Counted from the stretch's first letter, positions 1,910 through 38,857 are shown. The stretch: DNA of 64,000 nt from an uncultured Gammaproteobacteria bacterium (GCA_964523705.1 CAZFYA010000001.1:3388-67387), one strand, 5' to 3'. Notes: generated from the letters alone by a model not told the origin. Translations and numbers: made by a program.

Positions 1910-1965
1910 AAAGTCCTTGCGTGTTTACAAAGATGTTTATATAATAATTAACAAAATAAATCAAC

Positions 1966-3920: not shown

Positions 3921-3923
3921 AAA

Positions 3924-4475: not shown

Positions 4476-4518
4476 TACCTGTTAATAATAGCAGACTTGA
4501 GGGATTATTTCCATTAAA

Positions 4519-8624: not shown

Positions 8625-8625
8625 A

Positions 8626-10263
8626 TTATGTGAATTTTCTTAATTTTATACTAAATAATACTACTATTGCCAGAAAAGATATAACGGATATCAAATTTGA
8701 AACTTTTCTTAGCTTTGTATCTTCATAAACAACTCTTACGTTATAACTTCCTTTATCTAAGTGAAAAGTCATAATTCCTCTGTATGTCATATTTTGAAAC
8801 TCTACATCAATTGGCTTATTATCAGCCGTTATCTTCCATCCCGGAAAATAAATAGTATTTTCCATAAATAAAGTATTCGTTCTTGCATCAATTTTATACA
8901 CATGCTCTGTGGTAGTTCTTTTTAATTCTAAAATGTCTGCATTACCATCAATAACCTCTAGGTGTGCCTTCGGTCTTTTTTCCATAAATCTAACAGACCA
9001 AATAGGAGAACTCTCCCCTGTATCTGTTGTACTCTCAAAAACACTTGTATAAAAAGACTCCGGTTTTATTAAGTATCCTTTTGGCTTCATATAATTTAAG
9101 CTTAATAAAAAAATAATTATCAACAAGAGTGGTATTATTATTTTTCTTAATTTTCCCTTTAGCAAAGAAACACTTAAAGCGCCAAGAAGAGAGGTAGAAA
9201 ATACAGTAATGGCTAAAAGCCTCCACGGAAATTGAAAGTTTTGCAAAACCATAATATTTCTCCAAATAAAATCAGATTCTTTTAACATCATAAATATTGC
9301 CACAAGCGAATACACTAATCCTCCTAAGAATAAATAGTAATTATCTTTTCTTTTCTTAAAAGAATAAAAAACAATAATTAAAGAGAAAACAATCGCTAAC
9401 CAATGAATCAAACCAAGCTGAAGAGTAAATTCTCCGGATTGACCATAACTCCATGGTCCATAAATTAAAGATTTAAAATCAACAAAGCGATTTACATATG
9501 TCCCTGAAGTTAGAACATTTCTTAAGGTATATTTTCCCTCAAAAAATGCAGGAACCCAAAAAAACGAAGATAAAGTAAAACCTAGTATGATTGAAAATCC
9601 TAATTTTACAATATATGATTTTTTAAATTTTAATTTTGACCAAAGAAAAATTCCATAAAATATTATAAAGGGCAAAAAGATTAAACTTAGAGCATTATGA
9701 GATAAAACCAAAAAAGCAAAAGATATTCCTAGAAATATCGAGTAAATATAATTTTCTTTCTTAAATAATTTATAAGTAAAATATAAAACCAAAGGTAACC
9801 AAATAAATGCAAAATTTTCCCCTATTGCTCCCCTAACATAAAGATCGACAAATCTATAGGGGGCATAGACATAAAGAACAGCACCAAAAACAGAAGCATC
9901 TTTTTTTAAAAATTGAGACAACCAAAGATACATAAAAATTCCTGATAGAAAAAAACCAAGCGCAAAAATAATTTTCGTTGAATCAACAAAATTAAAACCT
10001 ATTAAATGAAAAAATGAAGCAAAATATGAAGGTAGCGGATATAAAAACATTAAAATAGGATGCCCATATCCCCAATTAAGATTTCCTGCCCAACGAGGAA
10101 TAATATTCCCCTCAGATAAACTCTGATAAAAGTTAGCTATTCTTGCTACATGATCTCTTCCATCATGAGTATATGGTAATCCTTGATTTAACAACGAAAT
10201 AAGCGGAATAAGTAAAAATAAGACTAATACAATAAGCAAAAATTTGTTTTTAAACTTAGTCAT
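8626..10263 (-). CDS. Polytopic membrane protein, YfhO-related GT-C-like (family C, HD...FPxRW motif)
   Basis: 545 aa. N-terminal YTHDGRDHVARIANFYQSL...IPRWAGNLNWGYGHPILMFLYPL; C-terminal YFPGWKITADNKPIDVEF beta-sandwich motif shared with YfhO proteins; paralog of 37322..38803 and 39331..40860. Confidence 0.5.
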   Translation of the reverse strand: MTKFKNKFLLIVLVLFLLIPLISLLNQGLPYTHDGRDHVARIANFYQSLSEGNIIPRWAGNLNWGYGHPILMFLYPLPSYFASFFHLIGFNFVDSTKIIFALGFFLSGIFMYLWLSQFLKKDASVFGAVLYVYAPYRFVDLYVRGAIGENFAFIWLPLVLYFTYKLFKKENYIYSIFLGISFAFLVLSHNALSLIFLPFIIFYGIFLWSKLKFKKSYIVKLGFSIILGFTLSSFFWVPAFFEGKYTLRNVLTSGTYVNRFVDFKSLIYGPWSYGQSGEFTLQLGLIHWLAIVFSLIIVFYSFKKRKDNYYLFLGGLVYSLVAIFMMLKESDFIWRNIMVLQNFQFPWRLLAITVFSTSLLGALSVSLLKGKLRKIIIPLLLIIIFLLSLNYMKPKGYLIKPESFYTSVFESTTDTGESSPIWSVRFMEKRPKAHLEVIDGNADILELKRTTTEHVYKIDARTNTLFMENTIYFPGWKITADNKPIDVEFQNMTYRGIMTFHLDKGSYNVRVVYEDTKLRKVSNLISVISFLAIVVLFSIKLRKFT

Positions 10264-10264
10264 C

Positions 10265-11554
10265 TTAATAAACCTCCATGCCTTTTTCTTTTCTCATTAA
10301 ATAATAATAGTAATACGACTCAGGTACCCCCACTTGAAACTCTATTCTTCTTTCGCTATCAACTGCTTCCCTTGCTTTTTTTTCTCTTTCAACAAAATTC
10401 CCTTCATCCTTATATGGCAAAAATTTCAACACTCCATAATATGAATAAACAAGTAAAAATAATATTACCAAAACTTTAACAAATTTATGTTTTATGCTCC
10501 ATATTAAATAAATAAAATAGGATAAAATTAAAAGAACAATAAACCTACTTATTATAAAATAATAATCGCTTATCTCCCCGCTGTAGACTGTAAAAATAAG
10601 CCAGGGAATAATAAACCAAAGAAAAACAAGATATAAAAATCTGATTTTTTTTAATTTTAATGACTGTTTATAAAACACTATAAAAAAAAGAGGTAATAGT
10701 AAAAACTTGTATGGCTTAACTTTATCTAAAACAAGATATGGATCGAATTGAATAAATGCATCGCCTACAATTTGAAACATTCTTTGCAAATGAAAACCAT
10801 GATAATAAGTTGATAGATAAGAAGAAGTTGTTAGATTGACTGAATTATTAGTGATTAAGTAAATAATATTTGGAATTAAAAATATTAAAAAACAAGGAAT
10901 TGAAATTAATATATATTTTAAAGTTTTTTTGTTCTTAGGGAAAAAAGGAAGAGATAATAAAATTATTATTGGAAAGAAAATTGCCGTAAAGTGAAGATTA
11001 AAAGCAATTCCTGTAAAAATAGCCAGGGGAATTAATTTTTTAATATCTTTTGTAATTACTTTGTACAGAAAATAAAAAATTAACATCGAAACTGCCGGAA
11101 GAAGTTGAACAGGCCATTGAATCCCATCAAAAATAATTATACTAAAACAAAAAGTATTTATTACAATCGCAATTATTGCCAACTCGTAAGAAAACAATTT
11201 TTTTGCAACATAAAAAATAGTAAAAAATGTAAAAACACTACTTATAAATGAAATAGTTAGCGAAGCAGCAGGATTTAAACCATAAATCCAATAAAAAAAT
11301 GCAACAAAATAATAATACAAAGGACCAATATATATTCCGCTATTTGCCTTAGCAACCATACCCAAAAGAGGCCAGTTGTTGTTAACTATTAAATTCTTTG
11401 CTGCCCAAGCATTGTCTACCTGATCATATCCAAAAGGGTTTTTTATTTCAGCTTGATATGTACGAAGAAAAATTTCAGATAAAAAAATTATCAACAATAA
11501 AACGTATATTTTATTTTTTTTAATAAATTTTAAATATGTTTTTATTTTTTTCAT
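10265..11554 (-). CDS. Polytopic membrane protein, GT-C-like (family B, short member)
   Basis: 429 aa. FGYDQVDNAWAAKNLIVNNNWPLLGMVAKANSGIYIGPLYYY aligns with the YDxxRD...PLIGP...GP...Y core of the family B members 11554..13062, 19654..21135 and 23451..24953. Confidence 0.45.
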   Translation of the reverse strand: MKKIKTYLKFIKKNKIYVLLLIIFLSEIFLRTYQAEIKNPFGYDQVDNAWAAKNLIVNNNWPLLGMVAKANSGIYIGPLYYYFVAFFYWIYGLNPAASLTISFISSVFTFFTIFYVAKKLFSYELAIIAIVINTFCFSIIIFDGIQWPVQLLPAVSMLIFYFLYKVITKDIKKLIPLAIFTGIAFNLHFTAIFFPIIILLSLPFFPKNKKTLKYILISIPCFLIFLIPNIIYLITNNSVNLTTSSYLSTYYHGFHLQRMFQIVGDAFIQFDPYLVLDKVKPYKFLLLPLFFIVFYKQSLKLKKIRFLYLVFLWFIIPWLIFTVYSGEISDYYFIISRFIVLLILSYFIYLIWSIKHKFVKVLVILFLLVYSYYGVLKFLPYKDEGNFVEREKKAREAVDSERRIEFQVGVPESYYYYYLMRKEKGMEVY

Positions 11555-13062
11555 TAGTTAACTAATCTTTTCTGAACTGTTACTCCACCCTTTAATAATT
11601 TCGATCCGATTATTTGTCCATCTTCTTCTCTTGCCTCAAGCCACCATTTGGGCCTATCGGGGTATCCCTCATCCGGCTCTATAATACAATACATTATATC
11701 CGCCTTTTTAACAGGAGTATATCCGTACTTTTTTTCTCCATACCATATAAAAAGATATTGATAAGTATTATCAAAAACCGGTGGTGTATAAAGTTCGTAT
11801 TTAAAATTCTCTCCTTTTACATCTTTATAGATATAATCAACTACTGCCAGCTGATTTCTATAAACTGCAGCATCGCCTTCAAATAATGGTCTTTGAAAAT
11901 TTTTAACAAATGAAAACGAAATAAAATTTACTACAAAGAGAATGATTAAGATTAATATGCTAACTAAATAATTTTTAGTATTTTTAGAAAATAAATATAA
12001 GCTTATTGATAATAAAAATATATAAACAACAGGTAGCCCAACTAGATAATGCGGCCATATTGCATAAGTAAAGATAAGTGTGCCGATAAAAAATACTACT
12101 AGAGTAATAATTAAAGTTAAAATAAAATCCTTAATAATTTTTTGTGCTTTTTTGTAAAACAATAAAAGCGTAACAGCAATTAATATCAACAATATTAATT
12201 CTAAATATCCTCTTGCTGGTAAAAACGTGTTTGAAAATGAATCAAAATACGTAAGAACTCTATTTTCTAAAAAATGGTATAAATCCAATTTATCCTCAAG
12301 TGTCTTAGCTGATAAAAATGAAAGAGCGGATTTTGTCATTAAAAAACTGTGTCTTAATTCAAAAATTATTCTTGGTGAAAAAATAAACAACCCTCCAAGC
12401 AAAAACAAAAGTATTTGTTTTATTTTTATGCTTTTTTTTAAAATAACCAAACATGAAAAAACTATACCTAATGAAAATAAAAATCCCCATAAAATCTCAA
12501 TATCAATATTTAAGGCAAGAAGAAGTCCTAAAATAAAAAAATACCTTAAATTTGCTTTACTTTTTAATACATATATTCTCTCTAATACCAAAAATGTTAC
12601 AAGAACTAATAACGGAGCAATATTTGGATTCCAAATTTGAGAAGATAATGAAATTAATGTTGATGAGATCGCTGTTAACAAAGCCATTGAAATACCTAAG
12701 AAACTATTTCCAATCTTTTTTCCTAAATAGAAAGAAAGAATAATTGATGCTATTCCAAATAAAGACATCGTAAAAGCAATTCCCTGCGGATCACCCACAA
12801 ATACCACAAAAAAAGGAAGTAATATAAAATACCACCATGGACCATAAAAAACCCCCTGAATCCCTGTTGTAGGCCCAATTAGAGTAAGTTTATGATTATA
12901 AGCAATGTCCCACAGAGAAAGTAAGTCTCTTCCAACGTCATAAGTAAAAGCAAAAGAATTATTTAACACCCCTTCAAGCCTTAAAACTGAACCAATTATT
13001 AAAATAACTAGGAAAACGAGATTTTCTTTTTTAGAAAATATTTTTTTAAAAAGCTTCATCAT
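11554..13062 (-). CDS. Polytopic membrane protein, GT-C-like (family B)
   Basis: 502 aa, more than 10 TM. FTYDVGRDLLSLWDIAYNHKLTLIGPTTGIQGVFYGPWWYF motif shared with three paralogs. Confidence 0.5.
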   Translation of the reverse strand: MMKLFKKIFSKKENLVFLVILIIGSVLRLEGVLNNSFAFTYDVGRDLLSLWDIAYNHKLTLIGPTTGIQGVFYGPWWYFILLPFFVVFVGDPQGIAFTMSLFGIASIILSFYLGKKIGNSFLGISMALLTAISSTLISLSSQIWNPNIAPLLVLVTFLVLERIYVLKSKANLRYFFILGLLLALNIDIEILWGFLFSLGIVFSCLVILKKSIKIKQILLFLLGGLFIFSPRIIFELRHSFLMTKSALSFLSAKTLEDKLDLYHFLENRVLTYFDSFSNTFLPARGYLELILLILIAVTLLLFYKKAQKIIKDFILTLIITLVVFFIGTLIFTYAIWPHYLVGLPVVYIFLLSISLYLFSKNTKNYLVSILILIILFVVNFISFSFVKNFQRPLFEGDAAVYRNQLAVVDYIYKDVKGENFKYELYTPPVFDNTYQYLFIWYGEKKYGYTPVKKADIMYCIIEPDEGYPDRPKWWLEAREEDGQIIGSKLLKGGVTVQKRLVN

Positions 13063-13065
13063 GTT

Positions 13066-14733
13066 TTAGGTTTTTGCAATTATCATTGCCGGAGTTCCGT
13101 CTAGATTATATATAGTTTTAAAAGCTGCTTGCTGAGGAATTTCATCAGGGTTTCCAATATACAATACGTTTTTTTCTAATGAATCATTCCCCCAGTTAAT
13201 TGGCCTAAATTCATATTTTCCATAACTTTGATGAGCCGCAAAACTACCTGAACTATTTTCCCCAACTTTTTGATATTCTTTTGGCGGGTATTTTAAATAG
13301 AAAGCAAAAAACATATAAGACTTATCCATTGGTTGCTTATCTGAAATTACCACTTTTTTAAAATTATCTTGAATTGGTTTTATTTCATTAATTGCTTTTT
13401 CGTATCCATATTGCCAATCCTTCGAATAATAATAATTCTGCTGTACAAAATACTGATTTAGGAAAAATGAAAAATTAAAAATAAAAATAGATACAAAGAT
13501 TATGTATAAAATATATTTTATTTTCTTAAACTTTTGTATTGCTAAAATTAAAGCAATTAATCCAATTGCTGAAAATATATGCCAAGTGGGCAAAAAATTT
13601 AACGTTCTTACCGCATGTGGAACTCCTGTTGTAATCGATGCTGGAATCGGTGCTATTAAAAACCAGGAAAAAATTAGACATCTTGTACGTTTTCCAAATC
13701 CGCCAGCTGACGGACCAAAAATTAAGGCATAAATTCCAATTAAGATAAGAGGAAATTCAAAAAGATATAAAAGCCCCATGCTTGGTGCATGATGACGAGA
13801 AATATCACCTGTTATAAAAAGCCAATTCAAATTAAAATGAGAAATATATCCTGAAACTATTGTTTTTGCATATACAATTCGTCTGTTATCCAATACAAAT
13901 CCTAATTTATTATTATCCTTTAAGTCTCTATCCAGTTTTTTAGTATTTGTTTTTAAAAGTTCTGTTTGGTAAGAAAAAATACTTGTTCCCTTAACTCTTA
14001 AAAGAGATGAGCTGTCGCTTAATATATACATTACCATTGGCATTAAAATTACAATTACCAGAATTAAAGAGGAAATTAAATATTTTTTACCTAAAAGTAG
14101 CAGCTGTTTTCTGTAAATTAAAATTAATGCAATAACAAGAAGCGGCGTAAAAACCCTGGTGCTCTGATATATATATGGAGATAATCCAATAAATATTGCT
14201 GATATTAGCAACAGCCATGGTTTTTTAAGTCCCTTTAGAAAAAATAAAGCAATTAAGATATTAAAAGAAGAACCAACATTTGCCTCGAAAGCAACTCTTG
14301 AGAATTGCATCGACCAAGGAGAAATTGCTAATAAAAAGGCGGATAATAATGCTAAATAATCCCTATATTTATAATCCTTAAATAACTCTCTGATTAAAAA
14401 GAAAACAGAAACAACCGAAATTACTCCAAAAATTGCCGATGGAAATCTTACTGCAAATACATTTAAACCAAAAACCAGAATTGATGGAATCGTAAGATAT
14501 GCATAAAGTGCAGGCTTATAATCATCAAAAGAGCGAAGAACAACCGGTAGGAATTTATTAAACTCATCCCTTCCTGTTTCAATAATTGAATAAGCATTAA
14601 AACCCAGGGCTACTTCATCCCAATCAGGAGAAGGTGGAACATTACCTAATTGCCACAACCTTAACACTAATGCAAAAAGTACAATTATTGAAAATAATAT
14701 CCAGGTAATTTTTTTAGTCATATGTATAAGCAA
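13066..14733 (-). CDS. PMT/ArnT-family GT-C glycosyltransferase (GT39/GT83-like, family A)
   Basis: 555 aa. First extracytoplasmic loop GNVPPSPDWDEVALGFNAYSI carries the DE motif; EFNKFLP...AVRFPSAIFGV...SPWSMQFSRVAFEAN is characteristic of the PMT_2 family. Confidence 0.75.
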   Translation of the reverse strand: MLIHMTKKITWILFSIIVLFALVLRLWQLGNVPPSPDWDEVALGFNAYSIIETGRDEFNKFLPVVLRSFDDYKPALYAYLTIPSILVFGLNVFAVRFPSAIFGVISVVSVFFLIRELFKDYKYRDYLALLSAFLLAISPWSMQFSRVAFEANVGSSFNILIALFFLKGLKKPWLLLISAIFIGLSPYIYQSTRVFTPLLVIALILIYRKQLLLLGKKYLISSLILVIVILMPMVMYILSDSSSLLRVKGTSIFSYQTELLKTNTKKLDRDLKDNNKLGFVLDNRRIVYAKTIVSGYISHFNLNWLFITGDISRHHAPSMGLLYLFEFPLILIGIYALIFGPSAGGFGKRTRCLIFSWFLIAPIPASITTGVPHAVRTLNFLPTWHIFSAIGLIALILAIQKFKKIKYILYIIFVSIFIFNFSFFLNQYFVQQNYYYSKDWQYGYEKAINEIKPIQDNFKKVVISDKQPMDKSYMFFAFYLKYPPKEYQKVGENSSGSFAAHQSYGKYEFRPINWGNDSLEKNVLYIGNPDEIPQQAAFKTIYNLDGTPAMIIAKT

Positions 14734-16366
14734 CTAAAGCTTCTTTTCCGTCTAAACGGTAAAAAGTTTTTAATATGTTTATATTTTCCGGTAATTTATA
14801 AGGCGTATTTACATATAAAACTTTATTCTCTTTACTTAATGAATAATCATAATCCTCTGGAAAAAGGTATTTACCAAAACCTAATATTTTTACAAATCCA
14901 AACGGATCTCTTTGAACTTTCATTGTTTTTCTAAATTCACCAGGCTCTGTTTTTGTGTAGAATAAATAATAAACATAAGGTCTTCCTAATTCATTGGTAA
15001 CTTGTACATAATCGTAATTTCCTTCAACCGACTTTACATACTCAATTGATTCCTTATATCCATATTGCCACTCGCTTGAGTATTCAAAAGAGTAATGATT
15101 AAAATAATTATGTAAAAAGTAAGAAACATTTAAAAACAAAAGAACAAATAAAATAACTATTACTGTATTTTTTATCCATTTTTGTCTGTATTTTTTAAGC
15201 CATAATAAAAAACAAACAAAACCATAAGCAGTCAATATTTGAAACATAGGAAGAGTCGTCTCAATCCTTAGGGCATGAGGTGTTTCCCTTGCAGTTGCAG
15301 CAGGAATTATACCAAGCAACAACCAGCTTGGAATAAGCCACCAATTATCCTCTTTTTTTCGTATTAAAAGAAATATTCCACCAATAAAAAATACGATGTC
15401 CCATATATACATTTGCCCGACATCTTGAATAGAAAACTTTGGATTTCCATCCCCTTTTATAAAAAGAAAATTTGGGTTTAAATTGTCAAAATAATGTCTA
15501 ATATATTCAAGAGAGTATAAAACCCTTCTGTTATTAATGACATTTGACCACAAAGCATTTCCATCATTTTGAATTTGCTGATTAGCTTTCTCAACTACAC
15601 TTATATCAGAGAAAATATTAACCTCTTTAAACCTTAAGCTTGCCTGTGGAGATAATAAAAAGGAAACAACAGGAGCAAGAATTAAAAAACCAAGAATAAT
15701 AGCAAAAATTGTTTGTTTTTTAATTGCTAATAGTTTTTTTCTAAAAGCATATAAAAGAAGCAATAATAAAAGCGGCGCTACTATTCTTGAAGTATTAAAC
15801 GTATATATTGATAAGGCAAATGAAAAGGCCGAAAGTAATAAATACCATTTCCTATCCTGTACGCCTGCTAAAAATGCCCAAACACCCAAAACTATAAAAA
15901 AGCTGGCAACGTTTGCCTCAAATGCTGCACGCGAAAGCATAATGTGCCATGGAGAAATAGCCAAAAATAATGCAGAAAATAAAGCGTATAGATTATTGTT
16001 TTTTGATTTAAAAAATATTCTTTTTACTAAAAAAAACGTCATAAATACCGTTAATACTCCAAAAAAAGCAGATGGGACTCTTACAGCAAACTCATTAAGC
16101 CCAAAAAGAAAAATTGGCAATACTGTTAAATATGCATAAATAGGAGGCTTAAAATCTCCAAATGACTCAAGATAGTCATAAGGTAAAAATCTTCCAAACT
16201 CGTCTTTTCCGTCAATTCCTATTGAGTAGGCATTATACCCCCAGGCTGCCTCATCCCAAGTTAAACTTGGTGGGTTTTGCCCTAAATTATAAAAACGTAG
16301 TGCAAACGCAAGAATAATTATTAAAACTATTAAAAAATTTTTGTTTAAAAACCTATACATCATCAA
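14714..16366 (-). CDS. PMT/ArnT-family GT-C glycosyltransferase (family A)
   Basis: 550 aa. NPPSLTWDEAAWGYNAYSI...AVRVPSAFFGV...SPWHIMLSRAAFEAN; tandem paralog of 13066..14733; 20-nt overlap with the downstream gene. Confidence 0.75.
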   Translation of the reverse strand: MMMYRFLNKNFLIVLIIILAFALRFYNLGQNPPSLTWDEAAWGYNAYSIGIDGKDEFGRFLPYDYLESFGDFKPPIYAYLTVLPIFLFGLNEFAVRVPSAFFGVLTVFMTFFLVKRIFFKSKNNNLYALFSALFLAISPWHIMLSRAAFEANVASFFIVLGVWAFLAGVQDRKWYLLLSAFSFALSIYTFNTSRIVAPLLLLLLLYAFRKKLLAIKKQTIFAIILGFLILAPVVSFLLSPQASLRFKEVNIFSDISVVEKANQQIQNDGNALWSNVINNRRVLYSLEYIRHYFDNLNPNFLFIKGDGNPKFSIQDVGQMYIWDIVFFIGGIFLLIRKKEDNWWLIPSWLLLGIIPAATARETPHALRIETTLPMFQILTAYGFVCFLLWLKKYRQKWIKNTVIVILFVLLFLNVSYFLHNYFNHYSFEYSSEWQYGYKESIEYVKSVEGNYDYVQVTNELGRPYVYYLFYTKTEPGEFRKTMKVQRDPFGFVKILGFGKYLFPEDYDYSLSKENKVLYVNTPYKLPENINILKTFYRLDGKEALVAYTYD

Positions 16367-18078
16367 TTGCTCAATCCTTTCTTATACTCTTTATTATATT
16401 TTAACAGCTCCGATAAGTTAACTGCCTTAAATAGAACATTACCCAATCTATCTTTTACAACAAAAACTGGCTTTACTTCCTTTGGAAAATCTACTGGATT
16501 AGAAATAATAAGAATTTTCTTTGTCGAAAGCTCTGAATTTTCATCAATTACTGGAGGATTTTGAACAAAATAAATATTTTCTATTTTATCTATTGATAGC
16601 CAACTATTTTCTTCTTTGCTATAAGAAACATTTTTTTTACCTTGATATTTTACCGGGTCATATTTATTAAAAAAGAGATAATATATATATTGCTTTGCAT
16701 CATTTAAGTGCCTTGTTATATAAATTCTCTCATAATCATCTTTTAATCCATGTACTTTACCCATTAAGTCTTTATATCCATATTGAGAAAAAATAGAATA
16801 ATTGTTCTTAAAATAAGTGTTATAAGTTATAAAAAGAGAGAAAACACTAAAAAACATAATTAAAGTAATTAATACAATTAACAACTGCTTAAGTCTCTTT
16901 CCTTTTAGAATATTAAAAAGATAATAAAGACCTAGTCCGTTTAAAAGAGCTAAAAACGGTATCATTATTGACGATCTTACATAATTCCCATCACTTGTAA
17001 GTGAATCCGGCACAGGAGACAGCAAAAACAAAATAACAAACGCATAGTTAATCTTCTTATACTTTTTGTCTTTCAACAAAAACAATAATCCCAGTATTAA
17101 AAGCGGCAAACAATAAAGATAGTCCAATCCTCTTTTTGGCAATATTGAAAATTGAGTATCAGTACCACTTATATATAAAAAATTTGTAGAGAAATGAGAT
17201 AAGTAATTTTTTACAAAAGTGCTTGTAAAAAGAAGTGGCTTATTATCAGCAATTTTACAAATAAATGGATCAATGGTATTTTGGCATTGACCTCTTTTGT
17301 CATTAAGTGTATTTATCAAACCCATGCTATTAATATTTGTGTTTAAGCCCACTTGTGAAAACCTAACCGTTGCAGCATTTTTTTGAAAAATAATTGGAGA
17401 TATTAAGATTATAAAAAATATTAACGGTTTTATTAAAGGCTTAAACCCATCTTCTCTTTTGTAATTAATAAATAAGATTACTGCTAAAACAAGAGGCGCA
17501 TAAAGAATATAAGCAGAATATGTATACATAGTAAGAGCTATAAAAAATGCTGATAAAAATAAATCTTTGCTAGTTCTTTTAAATACTCCAAAAAAAAGAG
17601 CAATAATTAGAAAAAATATTGCAATATTTGCTTCATGTGCAATTCTGTTTAAGCCTACGCTCCATGGCATAATTGCTAAAAATAACGAAGAGAAAATAGC
17701 AGCTTTTTTATCAACCAGCTTTCTTGTTAAAAAATACAGAGCAATAACAGCTAATACCCCTGCCAATGCTGATACAAACCTAACAGAAAATTCATTTAAA
17801 CCAAATAAAAATATTGGGATTAGCATTGAGTACCTATTTACAGGAGGTTGAAAATCACCAAAACCAATAAAATTATTTATTGGAAGAAAAGTTCCCCATT
17901 GATCTTTTCCTGTTAGAAGAATTGAATAAGCATCGTATCCTGCATTTGCCTCATCATTTAAAAAACCCGCAGGAATATCTCCTATTTGATAAAATCTTAA
18001 AAAAATTGCGATTAATATTACAAAAAATAAGATTAATCGGTCTTTTGAAAATAAATTCATTTTATATATATTTTCCAA
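16363..18078 (-). CDS. PMT/ArnT-family GT-C glycosyltransferase (family A)
   Basis: 571 aa. IPAGFLNDEANAGYDAYSI...SVRFVSALAGV...MPWSVGLNRIAHEAN. Confidence 0.7.
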   Translation of the reverse strand: MENIYKMNLFSKDRLILFFVILIAIFLRFYQIGDIPAGFLNDEANAGYDAYSILLTGKDQWGTFLPINNFIGFGDFQPPVNRYSMLIPIFLFGLNEFSVRFVSALAGVLAVIALYFLTRKLVDKKAAIFSSLFLAIMPWSVGLNRIAHEANIAIFFLIIALFFGVFKRTSKDLFLSAFFIALTMYTYSAYILYAPLVLAVILFINYKREDGFKPLIKPLIFFIILISPIIFQKNAATVRFSQVGLNTNINSMGLINTLNDKRGQCQNTIDPFICKIADNKPLLFTSTFVKNYLSHFSTNFLYISGTDTQFSILPKRGLDYLYCLPLLILGLLFLLKDKKYKKINYAFVILFLLSPVPDSLTSDGNYVRSSIMIPFLALLNGLGLYYLFNILKGKRLKQLLIVLITLIMFFSVFSLFITYNTYFKNNYSIFSQYGYKDLMGKVHGLKDDYERIYITRHLNDAKQYIYYLFFNKYDPVKYQGKKNVSYSKEENSWLSIDKIENIYFVQNPPVIDENSELSTKKILIISNPVDFPKEVKPVFVVKDRLGNVLFKAVNLSELLKYNKEYKKGLSN

Positions 18079-19670
18079 ATAGTCTCCGTATTCCCAAAAG
18101 TTCTAATTGTATTATCTGGATCACTTTTTTTATGACATTTTTCAGGGCTAATATATATTGAATTTTCTTGAATATAATCTCTTGGATCTCCCAATCCATC
18201 CATTAAGCAATTTCTTTCTAGAATAATGTTGTCAATTATTATCGGATTATTTCTAAACACGACCTGAATTTTATTGGGATCAATCTTGTTATAAAATGCA
18301 TAATGAAGTAATGTATTTTGTGTTCCGCCGGCAATAAAAATTTTTTTATCTTTATTTTTATTTACATAATCCACAAGGTCTTTTGTGCTTTTAGAAAAAT
18401 CCTTTACATGTGAATATGCAAAACGATAATGATATTCCACAAAGTAACCAAAAGCAAAATATGTATAAAGCGTAATCATAATTACCACAAAAACGACTTT
18501 TAGATATTTATTTTTAAAGAAATTGTAAACTGAAAAAATTCCTGCTCCAATAAGAATATATAAAAATGGGATCATCAATTCGGATCTGATTACATATGTA
18601 GGTGTATATGAACCTATTCCTGACGGTAGTGCAGATGATAGAAGCATAAATATTACAAAAACAAGCTCCCTTTTGCGCGATTTGTAAAGATAAAGTGTTC
18701 CTAAGACTAGAAAAAGAGCCTCAAAAAGATAAAGCTCTCCTCTGTCCCACATTGAAAAAATTGCACTAGGTTCTTGATTGATAAACAAAAACTGAGTTGA
18801 GAAAGCATAAAAATATTGATGATTAAAAACTCCAAACCAATAAGTTACTTTATTATTAAAAACAGTTTTAAGAATCTCCGGAGCATTAATATAAGTTCTT
18901 CTTTCCAGCTCTATAACTTCAGCGTCTTTGTAATTATTTGTAAAGAAAAAAGGTCCGCCGGCATACTGGGCTGCTTTTTGAGTCTTATCAAGATAAAAGA
19001 AAGACAAGAACGTAAAAACAGTAAAAAAAATAATTATAAACAATTGTTTTTTACTTAAATCTTTTAATTTATAAATTGTCAAAATTAGTATGAATGGCAG
19101 AAAAATTATCTTAGTAGCAGCATAACTATAGAAACCTAATAAAAAAAATATCATCGACAACAGGGTGATTAAAACAGTTTTTTTCCTCTGATTTACAAAA
19201 AGAAATATTCCCAAAAGATAAAAAAACATAGAAAATGCAGGATCGTATGCAACTCTAGATATCTGGATATGCCAACCTGAAACAGCCATAGCAAAAGAGG
19301 AAATAAGCGCAATTGTATAATTATTTGTAATTTTTTTTGTTATTAAAAATAATAATAAAACTGATAACACGCTTACCAGTGCATACGGCAATCTACTAGA
19401 AAAAACTGATAATTCAAGAATTGAAAAAAATAAACTCGAAATATATATAGAAACTGGGCCAAAGTTGACTGCTTCCATATTAAAGGTCAAAGGAATGTAA
19501 TGTCCATTAACATCCTTTAATGTGTGATAAAAAGAATATGCACTATAGCTTTCTCTAACCTCATCATCTGACAAGCTAATTGGTGCACCTCCTATGTTCC
19601 ACAATCTTAAAAATACTGCAATGAAAACAATTACCAATAGTAATAACTTCCAATTAATTATTTTTTTCAT
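18057..19670 (-). CDS. PMT/ArnT-family GT-C glycosyltransferase (divergent family A member)
   Basis: 537 aa. ISLSDDEVRESYSAYSF...SSRLPYALVSV...SGWHIQISRVAYD; same architecture but more diverged. Confidence 0.6.
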   Translation of the reverse strand: MKKIINWKLLLLVIVFIAVFLRLWNIGGAPISLSDDEVRESYSAYSFYHTLKDVNGHYIPLTFNMEAVNFGPVSIYISSLFFSILELSVFSSRLPYALVSVLSVLLLFLITKKITNNYTIALISSFAMAVSGWHIQISRVAYDPAFSMFFYLLGIFLFVNQRKKTVLITLLSMIFFLLGFYSYAATKIIFLPFILILTIYKLKDLSKKQLFIIIFFTVFTFLSFFYLDKTQKAAQYAGGPFFFTNNYKDAEVIELERRTYINAPEILKTVFNNKVTYWFGVFNHQYFYAFSTQFLFINQEPSAIFSMWDRGELYLFEALFLVLGTLYLYKSRKRELVFVIFMLLSSALPSGIGSYTPTYVIRSELMIPFLYILIGAGIFSVYNFFKNKYLKVVFVVIMITLYTYFAFGYFVEYHYRFAYSHVKDFSKSTKDLVDYVNKNKDKKIFIAGGTQNTLLHYAFYNKIDPNKIQVVFRNNPIIIDNIILERNCLMDGLGDPRDYIQENSIYISPEKCHKKSDPDNTIRTFGNTETIWKIYIK

Positions 19671-21135
19671 TTAAATACCATTCCTCTGTCGATTCGTATA
19701 CTGCACTTGGATTAATACTTACCCAATTTTCATTAATCAACGCACTAGTAGAAGCATTTGTTAAATCAAAAACCTCTATACCTCCTATGTTGCTAATCAA
19801 TTTAGGATATTTTCTGATAACCTTATCGTTTGAAGAGATAACCGCTAATCCAATTTTCTTACCGCTATCGTCTATCCTTTTTACCGTATCCAAAAATAAA
19901 ACTAAAGGCAGTCCTCTTTCAGAATATTGATATTCGTAAAGATAAACTGAAAATTTTTCATTAGGAAGCTTTTCTATTAGCTTATTTGTAAATAAATTTG
20001 CCTCTTTAGCTGTATTATTTGTCGCTGAAGTAATAACACTAATATTTATTCTCATTGTAAAAACAGTAATTATTAAAAGAAAAACCCAAAAAACAAATTT
20101 ATTTAACTGATTAAGCTTATAAAGAACAAAGCTTGAAAAAATTAATAAAAAAGAACTTAAAAATGCTGTATATACTCCAAATATTATTCCCTTATAATAC
20201 CTAAGCATCACAAAGATTAGTAAAAAAGAGATTATTAAAGAAAGCATTTCTTTCGAAATTTTTCTTTTTATTATTTCGTATAATGAAATCATTACTAATA
20301 AAGCAATTAATAAATAGCTAATAATTACATGTCCGCCAATTACTTCAGACCACGTTTTTGGCCAAAAAATTCCAACATATGTTAACCACCTGTTTGGAAC
20401 ATAAATCCTATTTTGGCCATAAAGATAATAATCAAGCATATTTCTAGATTCAAAAAAATTCGTCTTCAAATCAAAAATCAATAATGGAATAAACGGGATT
20501 AAAAAACCAAGAATTAAAAACACTAACTGTTTTAACTTTCTTTTACTAAACAAAAACCCTACTGGAATTAAAAACAGTAACCCTATCGCCTGAAAATGTA
20601 TATTAACTGCATTGGCTATAAAAAAACCAAGCAAAAATAAGTCAAATCCTTTTGAGTACTTAACCGATCTTATAAAAAAGTAAACAGAAATTATTGCAAA
20701 AAATCCAGCCATTGAAGGCGAAACTAAATTAGTAGAATGCATTATTTGTTGAGTTGATATTGCTGTTAAAAAAGCCATTATTAATCCAAATTTCTCATTA
20801 ATAATTTCTTTTCCAATTAAAAACATTATGTAAACGGCAAAAACGTAAAGAATCGTTTGCATTATCCATGGACCAATTAATAGATTTGGAGATAGAAAAA
20901 CAAAAAGTGAAATTATCCAATACCATTGAGGCCCATAAACAAATTGACCAGCTGAGCTAAATGGACCGATTAGGGGAATTAGATGATTATTCAAAGCATA
21001 TATAGAAACTATTAAATCACGAGCATGATCAGATGCTAATCCCCATCTATTCCAGTAATTAATAAACCTCAATACAGTAGCAAGTATTATAATGCAATAA
21101 AGTAATAATTTGTTTTTTTTTAGTATTTTTTTCAT
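19654..21135 (-). CDS. Polytopic membrane protein, GT-C-like (family B)
   Basis: 493 aa. LASDHARDLIVSIYALNNHLIPLIGPFSSAGQFVYGPQWYW; paralog of 11554..13062 and 23451..24953. Confidence 0.5.
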   Translation of the reverse strand: MKKILKKNKLLLYCIIILATVLRFINYWNRWGLASDHARDLIVSIYALNNHLIPLIGPFSSAGQFVYGPQWYWIISLFVFLSPNLLIGPWIMQTILYVFAVYIMFLIGKEIINEKFGLIMAFLTAISTQQIMHSTNLVSPSMAGFFAIISVYFFIRSVKYSKGFDLFLLGFFIANAVNIHFQAIGLLFLIPVGFLFSKRKLKQLVFLILGFLIPFIPLLIFDLKTNFFESRNMLDYYLYGQNRIYVPNRWLTYVGIFWPKTWSEVIGGHVIISYLLIALLVMISLYEIIKRKISKEMLSLIISFLLIFVMLRYYKGIIFGVYTAFLSSFLLIFSSFVLYKLNQLNKFVFWVFLLIITVFTMRINISVITSATNNTAKEANLFTNKLIEKLPNEKFSVYLYEYQYSERGLPLVLFLDTVKRIDDSGKKIGLAVISSNDKVIRKYPKLISNIGGIEVFDLTNASTSALINENWVSINPSAVYESTEEWYLNEKNN

Positions 21136-21731
21136 TTTTTCGCTCTAAACCACATATTCATTCTTAATTCAAAAAAACCACTGTTTATATTATCCTTTTT
21201 AAATCCAATATTTTGCAATAATGAATTTATTTTTACATTACTATGATTATGTTTATGATCTTCTGCTTCTTCATTACTGATTAAATAAATTCTTCCCAAG
21301 AAATGAATTAACCAATCTGACCATGGTGCAGGAGTTGTCATTATAAATAAACCATTTTTCTTAAGCACTCTTTTTATTTCCCTTAAAACAAAATCAAGCT
21401 TATCGTTATTAATATGTTCAAAAACAGCAAGCATTGTCACTACGTCAAAAAAATTATCTTTAAATGGAAGTCTTCTTTTTTCTACATCCATTTTTTTTAA
21501 AAAAAGCTTTTTATCTTTTAATTCCTTTAAGTTTGTATTAGGATCCACTCCATATTTTTCTTTAAAATTTGAATTTATTAAAAAATATGGATAAAACCCA
21601 CAACCGATATCTAAAATTCTATCTTTATTTGTTTTTTTAGAAAATAGCTTACTGGCTTTATTTACTCTTTGTTTTGCTAAAAAATTTTCCAATAAACCAC
21701 TACCACGAGTTACACTGTCTTTTTTAAACAT
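21132..21731 (-). CDS. Class I SAM-dependent methyltransferase
   Basis: Motif I ILDIGCGFYPY, post-I acidic residue, Methyltransf_11-like spacing; 199 aa. Confidence 0.75.
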   Translation of the reverse strand: MFKKDSVTRGSGLLENFLAKQRVNKASKLFSKKTNKDRILDIGCGFYPYFLINSNFKEKYGVDPNTNLKELKDKKLFLKKMDVEKRRLPFKDNFFDVVTMLAVFEHINNDKLDFVLREIKRVLKKNGLFIMTTPAPWSDWLIHFLGRIYLISNEEAEDHKHNHSNVKINSLLQNIGFKKDNINSGFFELRMNMWFRAKK

Positions 21732-21733
21732 AA

Positions 21734-23434
21734 TTATTTTATTGACAATAACTTAAAAGCAGTTGTGCTATCAGGTCTTTTTATTTCCGAAACTAGCAAT
21801 GCTTTATTTTCAGGAACCTCACAAGTACCTTCAACTACATAAAGTATATCTTTTTTTCCCACCAAAATGTTTTCCAATTTTCCTGTTGACTCATTTATTA
21901 ACTCCTCTTCTCTTAATGGACATTTCTCATCTGTAATTTCATAATTATCAAAAGACATACTTCCATATTTTGTACTTTTGCTATTCATAATAACATCTTG
22001 GATTAAAATAGGATCATATTTATTATAAAAAAGTAAAAATATGGTTGGAGCAAAATTCGCATCTGTTATTACAACCTTTTTATAATTTTTAGCATGTGTA
22101 TTTATTTCCTGAACTAATTCTTTATATCCCTCTTGTCTATACCAAGGCCTATGCGATGGTCCATGAATATAATATGAGTGTAAATAGGTTAAAAAACTAT
22201 AAAAAATAATAACTCCCATTGCGACAAAAATAATTTTTGTAATATACTGCCTTTTTATATTCTTTTTTAAAAAAAGAAAAAGCATAATAAATCCTAATCC
22301 CGAAAGAATAGATATTGCAGGAAAAATTGTTAACGTACGCTGAAGATTTGGTACATCATCTGTTGTTAAACCACTACCAATAGGTGCAATTAAAACCCAT
22401 CCAAGAATAAACCAGCCCGTTTTCTTATTAAACGAAAATAAATACCATAATCCCAAAATTAAAAGAGGTAGCTCAAATAGATACAACAAGCTACCACCGG
22501 GAACCCTATATCTATCCGGCAATCCTGCATCTGTAAATAAAAATTCAAAGCTGAAATGTTTAAAATAAGTCTTAGTAAATGCATCTGCGTAATTGGTTAT
22601 TTTATTATGAAAAAATCTTGATTCCAATGGCTTAACTCCCATTATTCCGTCTTCTCTTTGCTGTTCTGAAAGGACAAGACTTGTGTTTTGATGCTGAAAA
22701 ACAGATAAGGTTTTAATCCTATATGAAAGCGTTGGGGAAAAAAGCACTAATACCACCGGGATTATTATTAACAATACATAACCTAAAATTAAAACATAAA
22801 TTTTTAATCTATTAAATTTTCTAACATAAAACCCGTAAGTAAAAAGTAATAGTAAAAAAAGAGGCACAAAACTTCTTGCAGCTTGATAAGTATAAAGAGT
22901 AATAAAAAAAGATAAAAAACTAACTATTAACAAGTGCCATTTATTTTTCTCCAACCAATGAATAAAAAAATATGTTCCTAGAGAAATTAAAAAAACAACA
23001 ATTACGTTGTCTGTACAAACTCTAGAAAGATTGATATGCCATGGAGATATTGCTAAAAAAAATGATGTCAAAATCGCTAATTTATTTTTGTATTTATATT
23101 CCTTAAATAATTTTAAAACCAAAAAAAACACTAAAGGAATTGTTATAGACCCAAAAAAGGCAGATGCAAATCTTGCTGAAAACTCACTTAAACCAAATAT
23201 TGCTATAAATGGAATCGAAAAATACGTATATCCTGCAGGACTATACATAAAAGATTTAAGATTTAAGGGAAGTAAATTTCCGGTAATCTCCTTGCCTGTA
23301 TTAAGAATTGAATAACTATTGTAAGTTAAATATGCTTCATCAACATGAAAACCAGAAGGAATAACCCCGAGTTGATAAAAACGAAGAATTATAGCAAGAA
23401 TAAATATTAAAAATATTGGTAAATATTTTTTCAT
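21734..23434 (-). CDS. PMT/ArnT-family GT-C glycosyltransferase (family A)
   Basis: 566 aa. GVIPSGFHVDEAYLTYNSYSI...SARFASAFFGS...SPWHINLSRVCTDN. Confidence 0.7.
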   Translation of the reverse strand: MKKYLPIFLIFILAIILRFYQLGVIPSGFHVDEAYLTYNSYSILNTGKEITGNLLPLNLKSFMYSPAGYTYFSIPFIAIFGLSEFSARFASAFFGSITIPLVFFLVLKLFKEYKYKNKLAILTSFFLAISPWHINLSRVCTDNVIVVFLISLGTYFFIHWLEKNKWHLLIVSFLSFFITLYTYQAARSFVPLFLLLLFTYGFYVRKFNRLKIYVLILGYVLLIIIPVVLVLFSPTLSYRIKTLSVFQHQNTSLVLSEQQREDGIMGVKPLESRFFHNKITNYADAFTKTYFKHFSFEFLFTDAGLPDRYRVPGGSLLYLFELPLLILGLWYLFSFNKKTGWFILGWVLIAPIGSGLTTDDVPNLQRTLTIFPAISILSGLGFIMLFLFLKKNIKRQYITKIIFVAMGVIIFYSFLTYLHSYYIHGPSHRPWYRQEGYKELVQEINTHAKNYKKVVITDANFAPTIFLLFYNKYDPILIQDVIMNSKSTKYGSMSFDNYEITDEKCPLREEELINESTGKLENILVGKKDILYVVEGTCEVPENKALLVSEIKRPDSTTAFKLLSIK

Positions 23435-23450
23435 TTATAAAAATATATCT

Positions 23451-24953
23451 TTATTCTTCCGGATACCATTTCTCTATGGAATCATAAATTTCACTTGGAT
23501 TTACAAAATGCCATCCCTTATTCTTTAACTCATCATTTTTATACTCACTTATGTCAAATAAAAAATAATGTTTTCCAACAACACCAGTTATTACAGGTAA
23601 GTCATACTCTGAAAGCTGAGCACTATTGGTAGCAGTCGCAAACCCAACTTTAATTCCAGAATCATCTAGTAAATTATTTTTCATAAGAAATAAAACTGTA
23701 GGAACGCTTCTTGAAGTTGATTTATAATCATAATCATAAACAGCAAATTTTTTGTTTGGAAATTTTTTTCCTAAATCATTCATATAATCAGCTGCATATA
23801 TTGCAGTTGTATTTGTTGCATTTTTTATTTCTTCAATGTTTTTCATACTAGTAAATGTAATTATTGCTAATAATAAAATAATCATAAAAAATGGGTTTAT
23901 TTTTTTGATCTTCAATGTAATCCATGCCGTTAATATTAAAATCGCCGGATGAAGATAAACAAGAAAAGCTGAATAAACTTCTCCTTTAAAATAACGAAGA
24001 ATTACTACGTTAATTATAAAAAAAGAAAGTACGAATAAAATAATTTTAGATAATTTACGATAGATAACTGCATAAACGGCAATAATCGCCAAAAGAATTC
24101 CCAAAACATATCCAATTACAGGATACCCTCCTATAACAAGAGAAAATTCTCTTGGCCAATATATACCTAAATAAGTAAGCCACCTTTTTGGAAGAGCCAT
24201 CTCATTACCACCAGAAAGAAAAAATGAAATTAAATTACGACTTTGATAATGGTTACTAATAAAATCAAAAATTATTAATGGTATAAACGTAATAAAAAAA
24301 CCAATTAATAACAAAAATATTTTTTTTATTGAAAAACGACAAAAAAACGGAAGGATAATTAATACAAAGAGAAGACCAACTGCTTGAAAATGAATATTAA
24401 CTGCTAACCCCACAAAAAAAGCTGTAAGAAAGAAGTAAATATCATTATTAAATTTTATTGATTTTATAGCAAACAAAAAAACAAACATTGATACAAAACC
24501 AACAAAAGTTGAATAAGTAAGGTTTGTGGATTGTCCTATTTGTGCAGTAGATATCGCTGTTAACAATGCTAAAAGTAAACCAAGTTTATTATTATGAATA
24601 ATTTTTCCAATTTTATACATTACTAAAGGCATTAATGCAGAAACTCCAGTTTGAACTACCCATAACAAGAGTATATTTGTTGGTTGAAAAAAAGTAACAA
24701 ACATGTAAATCCAATACATATATGGTCCAAATACAAATGGACCAGAGGCTGAAAATGGTCCTATTAAGGGAATCTGATGAGTAAATATTGCATAATGAGC
24801 TACTATTGCGTCTCTCGCTTGATCATATGCCAATCCCCATCTGTTTTGATAATTTATAAATCTTAGAAAAACTGAAATTAACAAAATTATAGTTAGTCCT
24901 ATTTTAATTTCTTTATTTATAATCTTTTTTTTAAATTTTTTATAAAAACTCAT
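23451..24953 (-). CDS. Polytopic membrane protein, GT-C-like (family B)
   Basis: 500 aa. LAYDQARDAIVAHYAIFTHQIPLIGPFSASGPFVFGPYMYW; about 45-50% identity by eye to 19654..21135 in the conserved core. Confidence 0.5.
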   Translation of the reverse strand: MSFYKKFKKKIINKEIKIGLTIILLISVFLRFINYQNRWGLAYDQARDAIVAHYAIFTHQIPLIGPFSASGPFVFGPYMYWIYMFVTFFQPTNILLLWVVQTGVSALMPLVMYKIGKIIHNNKLGLLLALLTAISTAQIGQSTNLTYSTFVGFVSMFVFLFAIKSIKFNNDIYFFLTAFFVGLAVNIHFQAVGLLFVLIILPFFCRFSIKKIFLLLIGFFITFIPLIIFDFISNHYQSRNLISFFLSGGNEMALPKRWLTYLGIYWPREFSLVIGGYPVIGYVLGILLAIIAVYAVIYRKLSKIILFVLSFFIINVVILRYFKGEVYSAFLVYLHPAILILTAWITLKIKKINPFFMIILLLAIITFTSMKNIEEIKNATNTTAIYAADYMNDLGKKFPNKKFAVYDYDYKSTSRSVPTVLFLMKNNLLDDSGIKVGFATATNSAQLSEYDLPVITGVVGKHYFLFDISEYKNDELKNKGWHFVNPSEIYDSIEKWYPEE

Positions 24954-24971
24954 ATTGATTATTTATTATGC

Positions 24972-26633: not shown

Positions 26634-26636
26634 AAA

Positions 26637-29995: not shown

Positions 29996-30024
29996 GTTTC
30001 TATTTTAGCAAGTTTATAATGCTA

Positions 30025-30054
30025 TTGCATTTACAAGAAGAGTAATAATATAAT
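30025..30054 (+). promoter_or_regulatory. Sigma70-like promoter (TTGCAT-N18-TATAAT) feeding a near-leaderless transcript for the 30061 gene
   Basis: TATAAT at 30049-30054 lies 6 nt before the ATG at 30061; no SD possible. Confidence 0.5.
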
Positions 30055-30060
30055 TAAGAT

Positions 30061-34255: not shown

Positions 34256-34256
34256 A

Positions 34257-35165: not shown

Positions 35166-35166
35166 A

Positions 35167-38803: not shown

Positions 38804-38857
38804 ATTTGTATTATACAGATAACAGGTTTGAAATAAAAGAAATTTAGCTATGATTTC

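Follow-up and report, generated by a model that had tools for sequence, protein, structure and literature searches.

A window of 64,000 nucleotides (nt), deposited as DNA of an uncultured Gammaproteobacteria bacterium (GCA_964523705.1 CAZFYA010000001.1:3388-67387; GC content ~29%), carries four consecutive genes for membrane-bound glycosyltransferases, G1 to G4, between positions 13066 and 19670. They probably encode anciently diverged transferases of the GT-C superfamily that belong to a surface-glycan operon, in which a conserved core is joined by exchangeable accessory transferases and strain-specific glycans are the outcome. The array is not a dosage amplification. An earlier note on this DNA had described the four genes as a tandem amplification of transferases resembling protein O-mannosyltransferases (PMTs) and ArnT. 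Its four open reading frames (ORFs) are all present, on the minus strand and head to tail, and a further copy that it placed at 21734-23434, here G5, belongs to the same subfamily by all-vs-all BLASTP. The five genes of this G family, in window coordinates, are the following.

G1, ORF 13066-14733, likely 13066..14721, minus strand: GT-C core gene; 555 amino acids (aa) from a TTG start as the longest ORF; Pfam PMT_2, E 1.5e-10 (42 bits).
G2, ORF 14714-16366, or 14714..16363 if the start is ATG, minus strand: the most conserved core gene; 550 aa from a TTG start; PMT_2, E 2.5e-13 (51 bits), and PMT, E 3.2e-11.
G3, 16363-18078, minus strand: accessory gene at the edge of a variable slot; 571 aa, TTG start; PMT_2, E 5.7e-15 (56.3 bits).
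G4, 18057-19670, minus strand: rare accessory GT-C in the variable slot; 537 aa, ATG start; PMT_2, 25.9 bits.
G5, 21734..23434, minus strand: fifth member of the G subfamily, accessory; PMT_2, 39.2 bits; 26-35% identity to G1-G4 over the full length.

G1-G4 are pairwise 26-38% identical over ~490-550 aa, with E values from 1e-27 to 1e-106 in the all-vs-all BLASTP with composition-based statistics. This full-length homology, together with the GT-C folds of the G2 and G4 models, bears out their description as PMT/ArnT-like paralogs. The strings PDWDE, TWDE, LNDE and SDDE that had been picked out in the first loop align in a six-way alignment, and the Asp-Glu (DE) they share (D37-E38 by the numbering of G2) is kept by all of G1-G5 and by 247/247 complete members of the family. 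R145 is found in 250/250 family sequences and R95 in 248/250, the conserved polar or charged columns across the 250 sequences being D37, E38, R95, R145, N278 and R366. Because the DE and R145 are retained throughout, no copy looks like a dead enzyme. The signatures AVR(F/V)PSA, SPW and EAN, which had been ascribed to all four proteins, are complete in G1 and G2 but incomplete in G3 (SVRFVSA, MPW and EAN) and in G4 (SSRLPYA, SGW and DPA).

G1, G2, G3 and G5 exceed the gathering threshold of PMT_2 (PF13231; 26.1 bits), and G4 misses it by 0.2 bits although it is a full-length homolog. The PMT domain proper (PF02366) scores above its cutoff in G2 (43.7 bits) and G5 (24.3) and below it in G3 (18.5) and G4 (19.9), and finds no match in G1. 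There was no NCBIfam match to the ArnT equivalog, and a sequence profile built from G2 orthologs reaches only ArnT (5EZM; E 2.6e-4), through the transmembrane (TM) helices only. The family is large, with 3,028 clusters at 50% identity (E<=1e-30), and its orthologs are named generically in public records ('glycosyltransferase family 39', 'ArnT-like').

The AlphaFold model of G2 (predicted local distance difference test, pLDDT, 84; predicted template modelling score, pTM, 0.86) has ~12 hydrophobic helices, and that of G4 (pLDDT 91.6, pTM 0.91) has the same helix layout. Foldseek matched both models to GT-C enzymes with a probability of 1.00, the next matches, to transporters, having ~0.1. The top match of G2 is ArnT (5EZM; E 8e-7, TM-score 0.56), followed by PglB, AglB, ALG9, Pmt4, AftD and EmbC; G4 matches PglB, STT3 and AglB best, with ArnT and Pmt4 close behind (E 1e-7 to 1e-6). 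A polytopic TM domain, the acidic DE motif of loop 1 and similarity to solved GT-C structures place the proteins in the GT-C superfamily (class GT-C_A). On these models the G family is predicted to adopt the GT-C_A fold and is, by the tests run, not a member of GT83, GT39 or GT66; it appears about equally related to ArnT, the oligosaccharyltransferases and the PMTs.

The genomic comparison drew on 80 loci, each from a different GTDB species and each containing an ortholog of G2 (55-96% identical), with contigs of metagenome-assembled genomes (MAGs) among them; orthogroups were obtained by clustering the 250 G-family proteins of these loci. The organism is, on our assignment, a tiny Levybacteria-type bacterium, of the kind known from groundwater, within the candidate phyla radiation (CPR, or Patescibacteria). 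G2 finds relatives that are 96, 92, 86 and 78% identical to it, and >100 clusters at 65-72% are named Levybacteria or Patescibacteria. Several MAGs of the comparison set (L001, L003, L008, L011 and L017) and many other CAY*/CAZ* loci are labelled 'uncultured Gammaproteobacteria'; these labels are probably wrong, because the G2 orthologs (55-96%) and the synteny are Levybacteria-like.

Each paralog of the window falls in an orthogroup of its own in this 80-species set, and the orthogroups differ widely in occurrence. G2 is found in all 80 species, G1 in 72 as complete copies, G5 in ~23, G3 in 10 and G4 in 1-4, and at least 10 further G-family orthogroups are not present in this genome. A G1 ortholog lies directly downstream of G2 in 80/80 species. 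The contiguous G-family run that includes G2 comprises two genes in 35 species, three in 32, four in 12 and five in one, and its extra members belong to different orthogroups. Among the 80 species the order G4-like/G3/G2/G1 recurs in L019 only. The core pair is set between two slots of changing content; apart from G3, G4 and G5, the slots and their boundaries are made up as follows.

Y1, 26637..28928, minus strand: YfhO-family GT-C, E 5e-25; conserved scaffold.
GT2b, 25689..26633, minus strand: Glycos_transf_2, E 2.6e-23, with a hydrophobic C-terminus; kept beside GT2a across loci, conserved scaffold.
GT2a, 24972..25688, minus strand: GT2 enzyme resembling Dpm1, AglJ and GtrB; conserved upstream boundary of the variable slot.
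E, 23451..24953, minus strand: GT-C of the D/E/C subfamily in the variable slot; 42% identity to D, E 1e-128; weak PMT_2 match.
MT, 21132..21731, minus strand: S-adenosylmethionine-dependent methyltransferase, Methyltransf_11, E 7e-16; orthologs in the slots of many species.
D, 19654..21135, minus strand: GT-C of the D/E/C subfamily in the variable slot; PMT_2, E 7.7e-7.
C, 11554..13062, minus strand: GT-C-like membrane protein with no Pfam match, E 7e-19 to D and 2e-14 to E; downstream slot.
B, 10265..11554, minus strand: GT-C-like protein, PMT_2, E 7e-8; downstream slot, presence varying across species.
A, 8626..10263, minus strand: PTPS_related (PF10131, E 8e-9)/PMT_2 GT-C-like protein; conserved downstream boundary with orthologs in most loci.

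A GT2a ortholog lies upstream of G2 in 54 loci, and the slot between the two genes holds 0 to 5 genes and measures 6 to 8,115 bp, with 41 compositions in the 54 species. The downstream slot, between G1 and A, has 20 compositions in 44 species. In the window itself the GT2a-G2 slot (16340-24972; 8,608 bp) holds six genes (E, G5, MT, D, G4 and G3) and exceeds those of all 54 comparison species, the largest of which has 8,115 bp and five genes.

Close relatives show how the slots change. L081, whose G2 is 92% identical in aa sequence, has a DNA identity to the window of 89% across Y1-GT2b-GT2a, 83% across G2-G1-C-B and 81% across A and the GT2 gene beside it. Its GT2a-G2 slot holds two G-family genes that differ from those of the window, with the methyltransferase gene and a YfhO gene in inverted orientation between them, and L081 is without orthologs of E, G5, D, G4 and G3. 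L082 (76%) has yet another set. L001 (G2 at 96%) is a mosaic, 91% identical through G3, G2 and the N-terminus of G1, ~70% identical in the C-terminus of G1, C and B, with one extra gene, and 89% identical in A. Conserved flanks that enclose non-homologous content in close relatives are the mark of a flexible 'glycotype' island, and they are seen in L081, in the many slot compositions and in the L001 mosaic. Gene content does differ between related genomes, for which the earlier note had suggested a check of copy number; what changes is not how many copies there are of one gene but which orthogroups occupy a replaceable slot. The high density of GT-C genes is a property of the clade, the median being nine GT-C-like genes per 21.6 kb in 44 species.

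In two of these relatives (L081 19320-21626; L082 20385-21641, which runs off the end of the locus) a GT2 ortholog is fused to a GT-C domain like that of D and E. The fusion protein, of 765-768 aa, matches Glycos_transf_2 and, weakly, PMT_2, and its GT2 part is 93% identical to the stand-alone GT2 of the window at 7854-8624. It is a putative link of the Rosetta-stone type between a cytoplasmic GT2 and a GT-C in one pathway.

A refinement of the reading given above would make G2 and G1 an obligate heterodimer, like yeast Pmt1-Pmt2 or mycobacterial EmbA-EmbB, with G3 and G4 as independent add-ons. The two genes are adjacent in every species, and at 64/77 of their junctions they either overlap or are separated by no more than 10 nt, an arrangement that favours 1:1 co-translation (under a consistent start rule there is an overlap at 44/77 junctions, of 4 nt in 23 and of 8 nt in 11, while a further 20 have the genes within 10 nt of each other). 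Both proteins retain the DE, and heterodimeric GT-Cs (6P25, 7BVF) are among their structural relatives. Tight spacing is, however, general across this operon, and neither ArnT nor PglB, whose structures match best over the full length, is an obligate heterodimer. We consider the heterodimer possible but less likely than not.

The genes described so far are part of a glycan-biosynthesis cluster of at least 46.5 kb, which ends at a tRNA-Glu gene (46789-46863); the remaining 17 kb of the window is taken up by housekeeping genes. Flanking genes of GT-C type had been overlooked, and the array is larger than four genes. Ten GT-C genes run consecutively from 8626 to 24953, the sole interruption being the methyltransferase gene (21132-21731), and the cluster as a whole contains 16-17 GT-C-type genes of five subfamilies in addition to sugar-nucleotide enzymes and transferases of the GT2 and GT4 families. 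Its extent and its other features are these.

Glycan-biosynthesis cluster, 186..46738: all genes on the minus strand except a DegT aminotransferase gene (1966-3180, plus strand).
Two Wzx-like flippases, 4519-5838 and 35167-36621, minus strand: within the cluster.
Y2, 30259-32580, minus strand: YfhO family, E 6e-33.
P1, 37322-38803, minus strand: PTPS_related (PF10131), E 5e-13; paralog of A.
P2, 39331-40860, minus strand: PTPS_related (PF10131), E 3.5e-7; paralog of A.
Y3, 40850-43222, minus strand: YfhO family, E 1.5e-31.
G6, 43222-44754, minus strand: PMT_2, E 1.5e-12, also PMT; a lineage separate from the G subfamily.

Y1, Y2 and Y3 are 31-34% identical to each other, and P1 and P2 are 29-34% identical to A. 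G6 had been counted as a sixth copy of the array genes, a view we do not share; it gives only partial matches (E ~1e-4 to G1 and G5) and belongs to a different PMT_2 lineage. A soluble protein of 145 aa without a Pfam match is encoded between P1 and P2 (38858-39295), and a membrane protein of 390 aa at 44800-45972 (gene F) has weak matches to GT87 and to the mycobacterial MptA/MptB, all of them below cutoff. These matches hint at chemistry of the mannan type in the cluster. An Rfam scan of the window found two tRNAs only. The tRNA-Gln (52316-52387, minus strand) lies within the longest minus-strand ORF at 51856-52398, near its 5' end, and the start of this ORF is therefore over-called.

The cluster suggests how the G proteins may be supplied with sugar. 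The best PDB sequence match of GT2a is dolichol-phosphate-mannose synthase (5MLZ; residues 1-234, E 3.5e-18), ahead of GtrB and ArnC, and GT2a is a candidate polyprenyl-phosphate sugar synthase. Four GT2s of ~240-250 aa are encoded in the cluster (3177-3920, 24972-25688, 36608-37321 and 45983-46738), and all four match polyprenyl- or dolichyl-phosphate sugar synthases best (PpgS, AglJ/DPMS, ArnC and PgfS), in each case below the equivalog cutoff. This suggests that several different lipid-linked monosaccharide donors may be made by one cluster. The pathway that we envisage is modelled on GtrA/B/C, CsbB-YfhO, ArnC-ArnT, Ppm1-Pmt and the mycobacterial Emb/Aft/Mpt enzymes (PMC11127046, PMC5836110, PMC4402001). 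In it the small Dpm1/GtrB-like GT2s (GT2a and up to three others) would load sugars onto polyprenyl phosphate at the cytoplasmic face, and a flippase would move the lipid-linked sugar across the membrane. Each GT-C would then transfer its sugar at the outer face of the membrane by means of the loop-1 Asp-Glu; the motif and the fold are observed, and catalysis is presumed from them. Each would act at its own position, or form its own linkage, on an acceptor at the cell surface, with distinct specificities. That the donor is a polyprenyl-phosphate sugar and that the G proteins act outside the cytoplasm we infer from the fold and from the adjacent genes for Dpm1/GtrB/ArnC-like GT2s. As to the acceptor, the surrounding Wzx, GT2, GT4 and sugar-nucleotide genes speak for a glycopolymer of the wall or surface, or for a lipid-linked oligosaccharide, rather than for protein.

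Several observations weigh against this scheme. The NCBIfam matches of GT2a to AglJ, PgfS, ArnC and PpgS are all far below the equivalog cutoffs. No flippase of the GtrA, SMR or MATE type, suited to a monophosphate-linked sugar, was found in the window, which has only the two Wzx-like proteins; the only small ORFs of the window that are not nested in others (38858-39295 and 46896-47444) encode soluble proteins. Assignment of the G family to an ArnT-like, oligosaccharyltransferase-like or PMT-like class by structure ranking was tried and given up, the scores being too similar (TM-score ~0.5 for all) and the top match differing between G2 and G4. We infer transcription as a single operon from gene spacing alone. 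Finally, the comparison loci are MAG contigs, and some of the differences in content could be assembly artefacts. One such case was found, an apparent loss of G1 in L001 that is due to a run of 100 N (L001 3934-4033) inside the G1 ortholog, the corresponding stretch of the window being ~460 nt.

Among the alternatives for function, the most serious is that the G proteins are PMT-type protein O-glycosyl (O-mannosyl) transferases, each acting on different secreted, S-layer or pilin substrates. They have the loop-1 Asp-Glu of the PMTs (GT39; yeast Pmt1-Pmt2, 6P25, and Pmt4, 9E61/9I5K; the actinobacterial Pmt with its Ppm1) and fall under the Pfam families PMT and PMT_2, PF02366 matching G2, G5 and G6 and, weakly, G3 and G4. 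Orthologs are named 'glycosyltransferase family 39' by NCBI, Pmt4 and Pmt1-Pmt2 are among the structural matches, and a Dpm1-like gene is nearby, GT2a resembling Dpm1, AglJ and PgfS, which feed protein glycosylation. PMTs also occur as pairs of paralogous enzymes, a possible parallel to G2-G1. Yet a Pfam search of the G proteins detected no PMT_4TMC or MIR domain, and the PMT structures align with the N-terminal half only (~260-280 columns, with a query-normalised TM-score, TMq, of ~0.3), whereas ArnT and PglB can be aligned from end to end. Neighbours such as the Wzx, GT4, GT2 and sugar-nucleotide genes are typical of polysaccharide loci, and the locus has no conserved gene for a candidate acceptor protein. 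We consider protein O-glycosylation unlikely, though still a serious rival.

Far less probable is that the G proteins decorate a membrane lipid in the manner of ArnT, altering the surface charge by modifying a lipid A-like molecule or a glycolipid head group. ArnT is the best match of G2 by sequence profile as well as by structure, and genes resembling ArnB (the DegT aminotransferase) and ArnC are in the cluster. The likeness extends to architecture, ArnT (GT83; the Cupriavidus metallidurans structures 5EZM/5F15) being a protein of ~540 aa with a multi-helix TM domain and a small C-terminal extracytoplasmic alpha/beta domain, and to its donor, a presumed polyprenyl-phosphate monosaccharide from an ArnC/Dpm1-like GT2. 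The match is nevertheless remote, the profile hit being confined to the TM region at 12-14% identity, and comparison with ArnT gives identities of 10-14%. ArnT is one enzyme where there are many paralogs here, and 16-17 GT-Cs are hard to explain for such a pathway. CPR bacteria are generally considered to lack lipopolysaccharide, and the present organism is probably without lipid A.

The age of the duplications disposes of the remaining proposal, that one transferase gene was recently amplified in tandem for dosage or adaptation, with a copy number that varies between strains. Its appeal is that four genes of one family lie adjacent on the same strand with overlapping ends, and that the G run varies from two to five genes between genomes. 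The copies are, however, only 26-38% identical in aa sequence, and DNA similarity between the paralogs of the window amounts to ~67-70% in stretches of at most 325 nt in the region of the catalytic loop. Third codon positions agree at identical residues in a fraction of 0.49-0.65, against 0.51-0.55 expected from codon usage, and synonymous sites are therefore saturated. Orthologs in other species are much closer than array neighbours, identity to own orthologs being 55-96% for G2, 44-85% for G1 and 52-87% for G3; the nearest non-self relative of G4 in 5.8 billion clusters is 50% identical. What varies between genomes is which orthogroups are present and not the number of copies of one gene. 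Since the copies are saturated and each is closer to its own orthologs than to its neighbours, the duplications appear to predate the Levybacteria radiation, and recent amplification, as the earlier note had it, is for practical purposes refuted. The earlier note had named as its own refutation that the motifs might be an artefact of composition in AT-rich, hydrophobic proteins, and the ~29% GC of the genome and the strong hydrophobicity of the proteins might suggest as much. This reading is refuted by the composition-corrected E values down to 1e-106, the invariant polar and charged columns across 250 sequences and the confident folds; the alignment found position-specific conservation that is real.

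Within the ancient family that we favour, divergence is not evenly spread over the protein. Conservation was mapped on the G2 model, and for each region the identity between the paralogs was compared with that between G2 orthologs, with the following results.

First extracytoplasmic loop with the DE (25-73): paralogs 0.41, orthologs 0.88.
TM helices: paralogs 0.32, orthologs 0.65.
Short loops: paralogs 0.33, orthologs 0.75.
Long loop (237-315): paralogs 0.21, orthologs 0.79.
C-terminal extracytoplasmic domain (423-549): paralogs 0.23, orthologs 0.70.

The generalization that the TM cores are conserved and the loops diverged holds for the long loop and the C-terminal domain, where the divergence is concentrated; it fails for the catalytic loop, which is the best conserved region, and the TM helices are merely average. 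The underlying idea, that the pattern is the one expected of transferases whose specificity has diverged, is supported by this region-specific divergence. Strong constraint inside each orthogroup, coupled with divergence from one paralog to the next, sets the long loop and the C-terminal domain apart and may be read as a signature of functional specialization, most simply of acceptor or linkage specificity.

The overlaps between the genes had been given as 20, 4 and 22 nt, which follows the longest-ORF convention with TTG starts. The N-termini of G1 orthologs begin M-x-K-K before the first TM helix, and several orthologs have only the ATG that gives an overlap of 8 nt; because of these N-termini G1 most likely starts at ATG 14721 and overlaps G2 by 8 nt. 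G2 probably starts at ATG 16363 (1-nt overlap) or at TTG 16366 (4 nt). A GGAG precedes the TTG of G3 at 18078 by 5 nt, and in L019 the ortholog has an ATG at the equivalent position with the same 22-nt overlap, so that this overlap may be real; the alternative is ATG 18060 with a 4-nt ATGA overlap. The 17-nt overlap of D with G4, which starts with ATG, is robust. The three values are hence correct for the longest ORFs and the 22-nt overlap is plausible, but the 20-nt overlap is most likely one of 8 nt, and the choice of start codon decides the length of two of the three 'long' overlaps. Tight translational coupling, which had been read from them, is plausible as well; it would be a property of the whole packed block, the long overlaps being in part artefacts of start calling. 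Throughout 8626-28928 the genes are at most 18 nt apart. The only sizeable gap within the minus-strand cluster, of 263 nt at 29996-30258, could be the site of an internal promoter or the limit of an operon. Promoter-like and terminator-like motifs were not above shuffled expectation, and the scans were uninformative.

The locus combines features of several known systems. In the three-component systems (GtrA/GtrB/GtrC of Shigella and Salmonella, CsbB-YfhO and GtlA-GtlB of Firmicutes, and the GT136 pentofuranose enzymes), the gene for a GT2 polyprenyl-phosphate sugar synthase lies beside genes for GT-Cs, as that of the candidate synthase GT2a does here, and members of the YfhO family are found in the window cluster too. 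Three-component systems (PMC11127046) and CsbB/YfhO (PMC5836110) are precedents for the reading favoured here, and serotype- or strain-specific GT-Cs acting on a shared backbone bring about surface variation in such systems (PMC11127046, PMC5836110). They have a single GT-C, in contrast to the 16-17 of the present chromosomal giant operon, in which no GtrA, SMR or MATE gene was found; no phage-borne relatives, as would be found in Gtr-like seroconversion, turned up in an IMG/VR search of limited sensitivity. The GT-C sets of mycobacteria and corynebacteria (EmbA/B/C, AftA-D, MptA/B and PimE) likewise comprise many paralogs, each making one linkage outside the membrane from polyprenyl-phosphate sugars. 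Emb and Aft structures are among the Foldseek matches and gene F matches MptA/MptB weakly, but those enzymes are larger, bear carbohydrate-binding modules, are scattered over the genome and are not swapped between strains, and no membership of their families was found for the G proteins at the level of sequence.

The genes for RgtA and RgtB of Rhizobium are adjacent. These paralogous ArnT-like galacturonosyltransferases add the same sugar at different positions of one acceptor (PMC4402001). Unlike the G proteins, they act on the Kdo (3-deoxy-D-manno-oct-2-ulosonic acid) of the lipopolysaccharide core, number two to four paralogs and have no hypervariable slot. With the 'glycotype' islands, such as O-antigen, capsule and S-layer loci, the present locus shares conserved flanks, sharp drops in identity and replacement of whole genes between close strains; the cargo here consists mostly of GT-C membrane transferases, whereas there it consists of cytoplasmic GT-A and GT-B enzymes. 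We found no description in the literature of a CPR locus with a GT-C-dominated operon, a universal paralog pair and slots that exchange GT-Cs, although such absence is not proof. GT-C enzymes, polyprenyl-phosphate donors and variable glycan islands are all established, and no new kind of mechanism is involved.

Cultivated CPR bacteria live attached to other cells, and little is known of their surface chemistry. Two complete Levybacteria chromosomes, of 0.76 and 1.14 Mb, are among the loci compared. A glycan operon of at least 46 kb, with a conserved pair beside ever-changing slots, points to strong diversifying selection on a surface glycan assembled outside the cell. A broader suggestion, which we put forward tentatively and with less than even confidence, is that Levybacteria, and perhaps other CPR bacteria, diversify their surface by means of an island that is swapped by recombination and has GT-Cs as its cargo, the glycan being built outside the cell from lipid-monophosphate sugars by a core of G2 and G1, possibly heterodimeric, and by accessory GT-Cs. 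If this is true, it would be the CPR counterpart of O-antigen and capsule serotype variation, with relevance to host attachment or escape from phage in episymbionts with genomes of ~1 Mb. The large GT-C family (~3,000 clusters at 50% identity) is a resource for enzyme discovery, and the G2-G1 pair, the Dpm1-like GT2a and the slot boundaries offer concrete experimental handles on the biology of the CPR cell surface.

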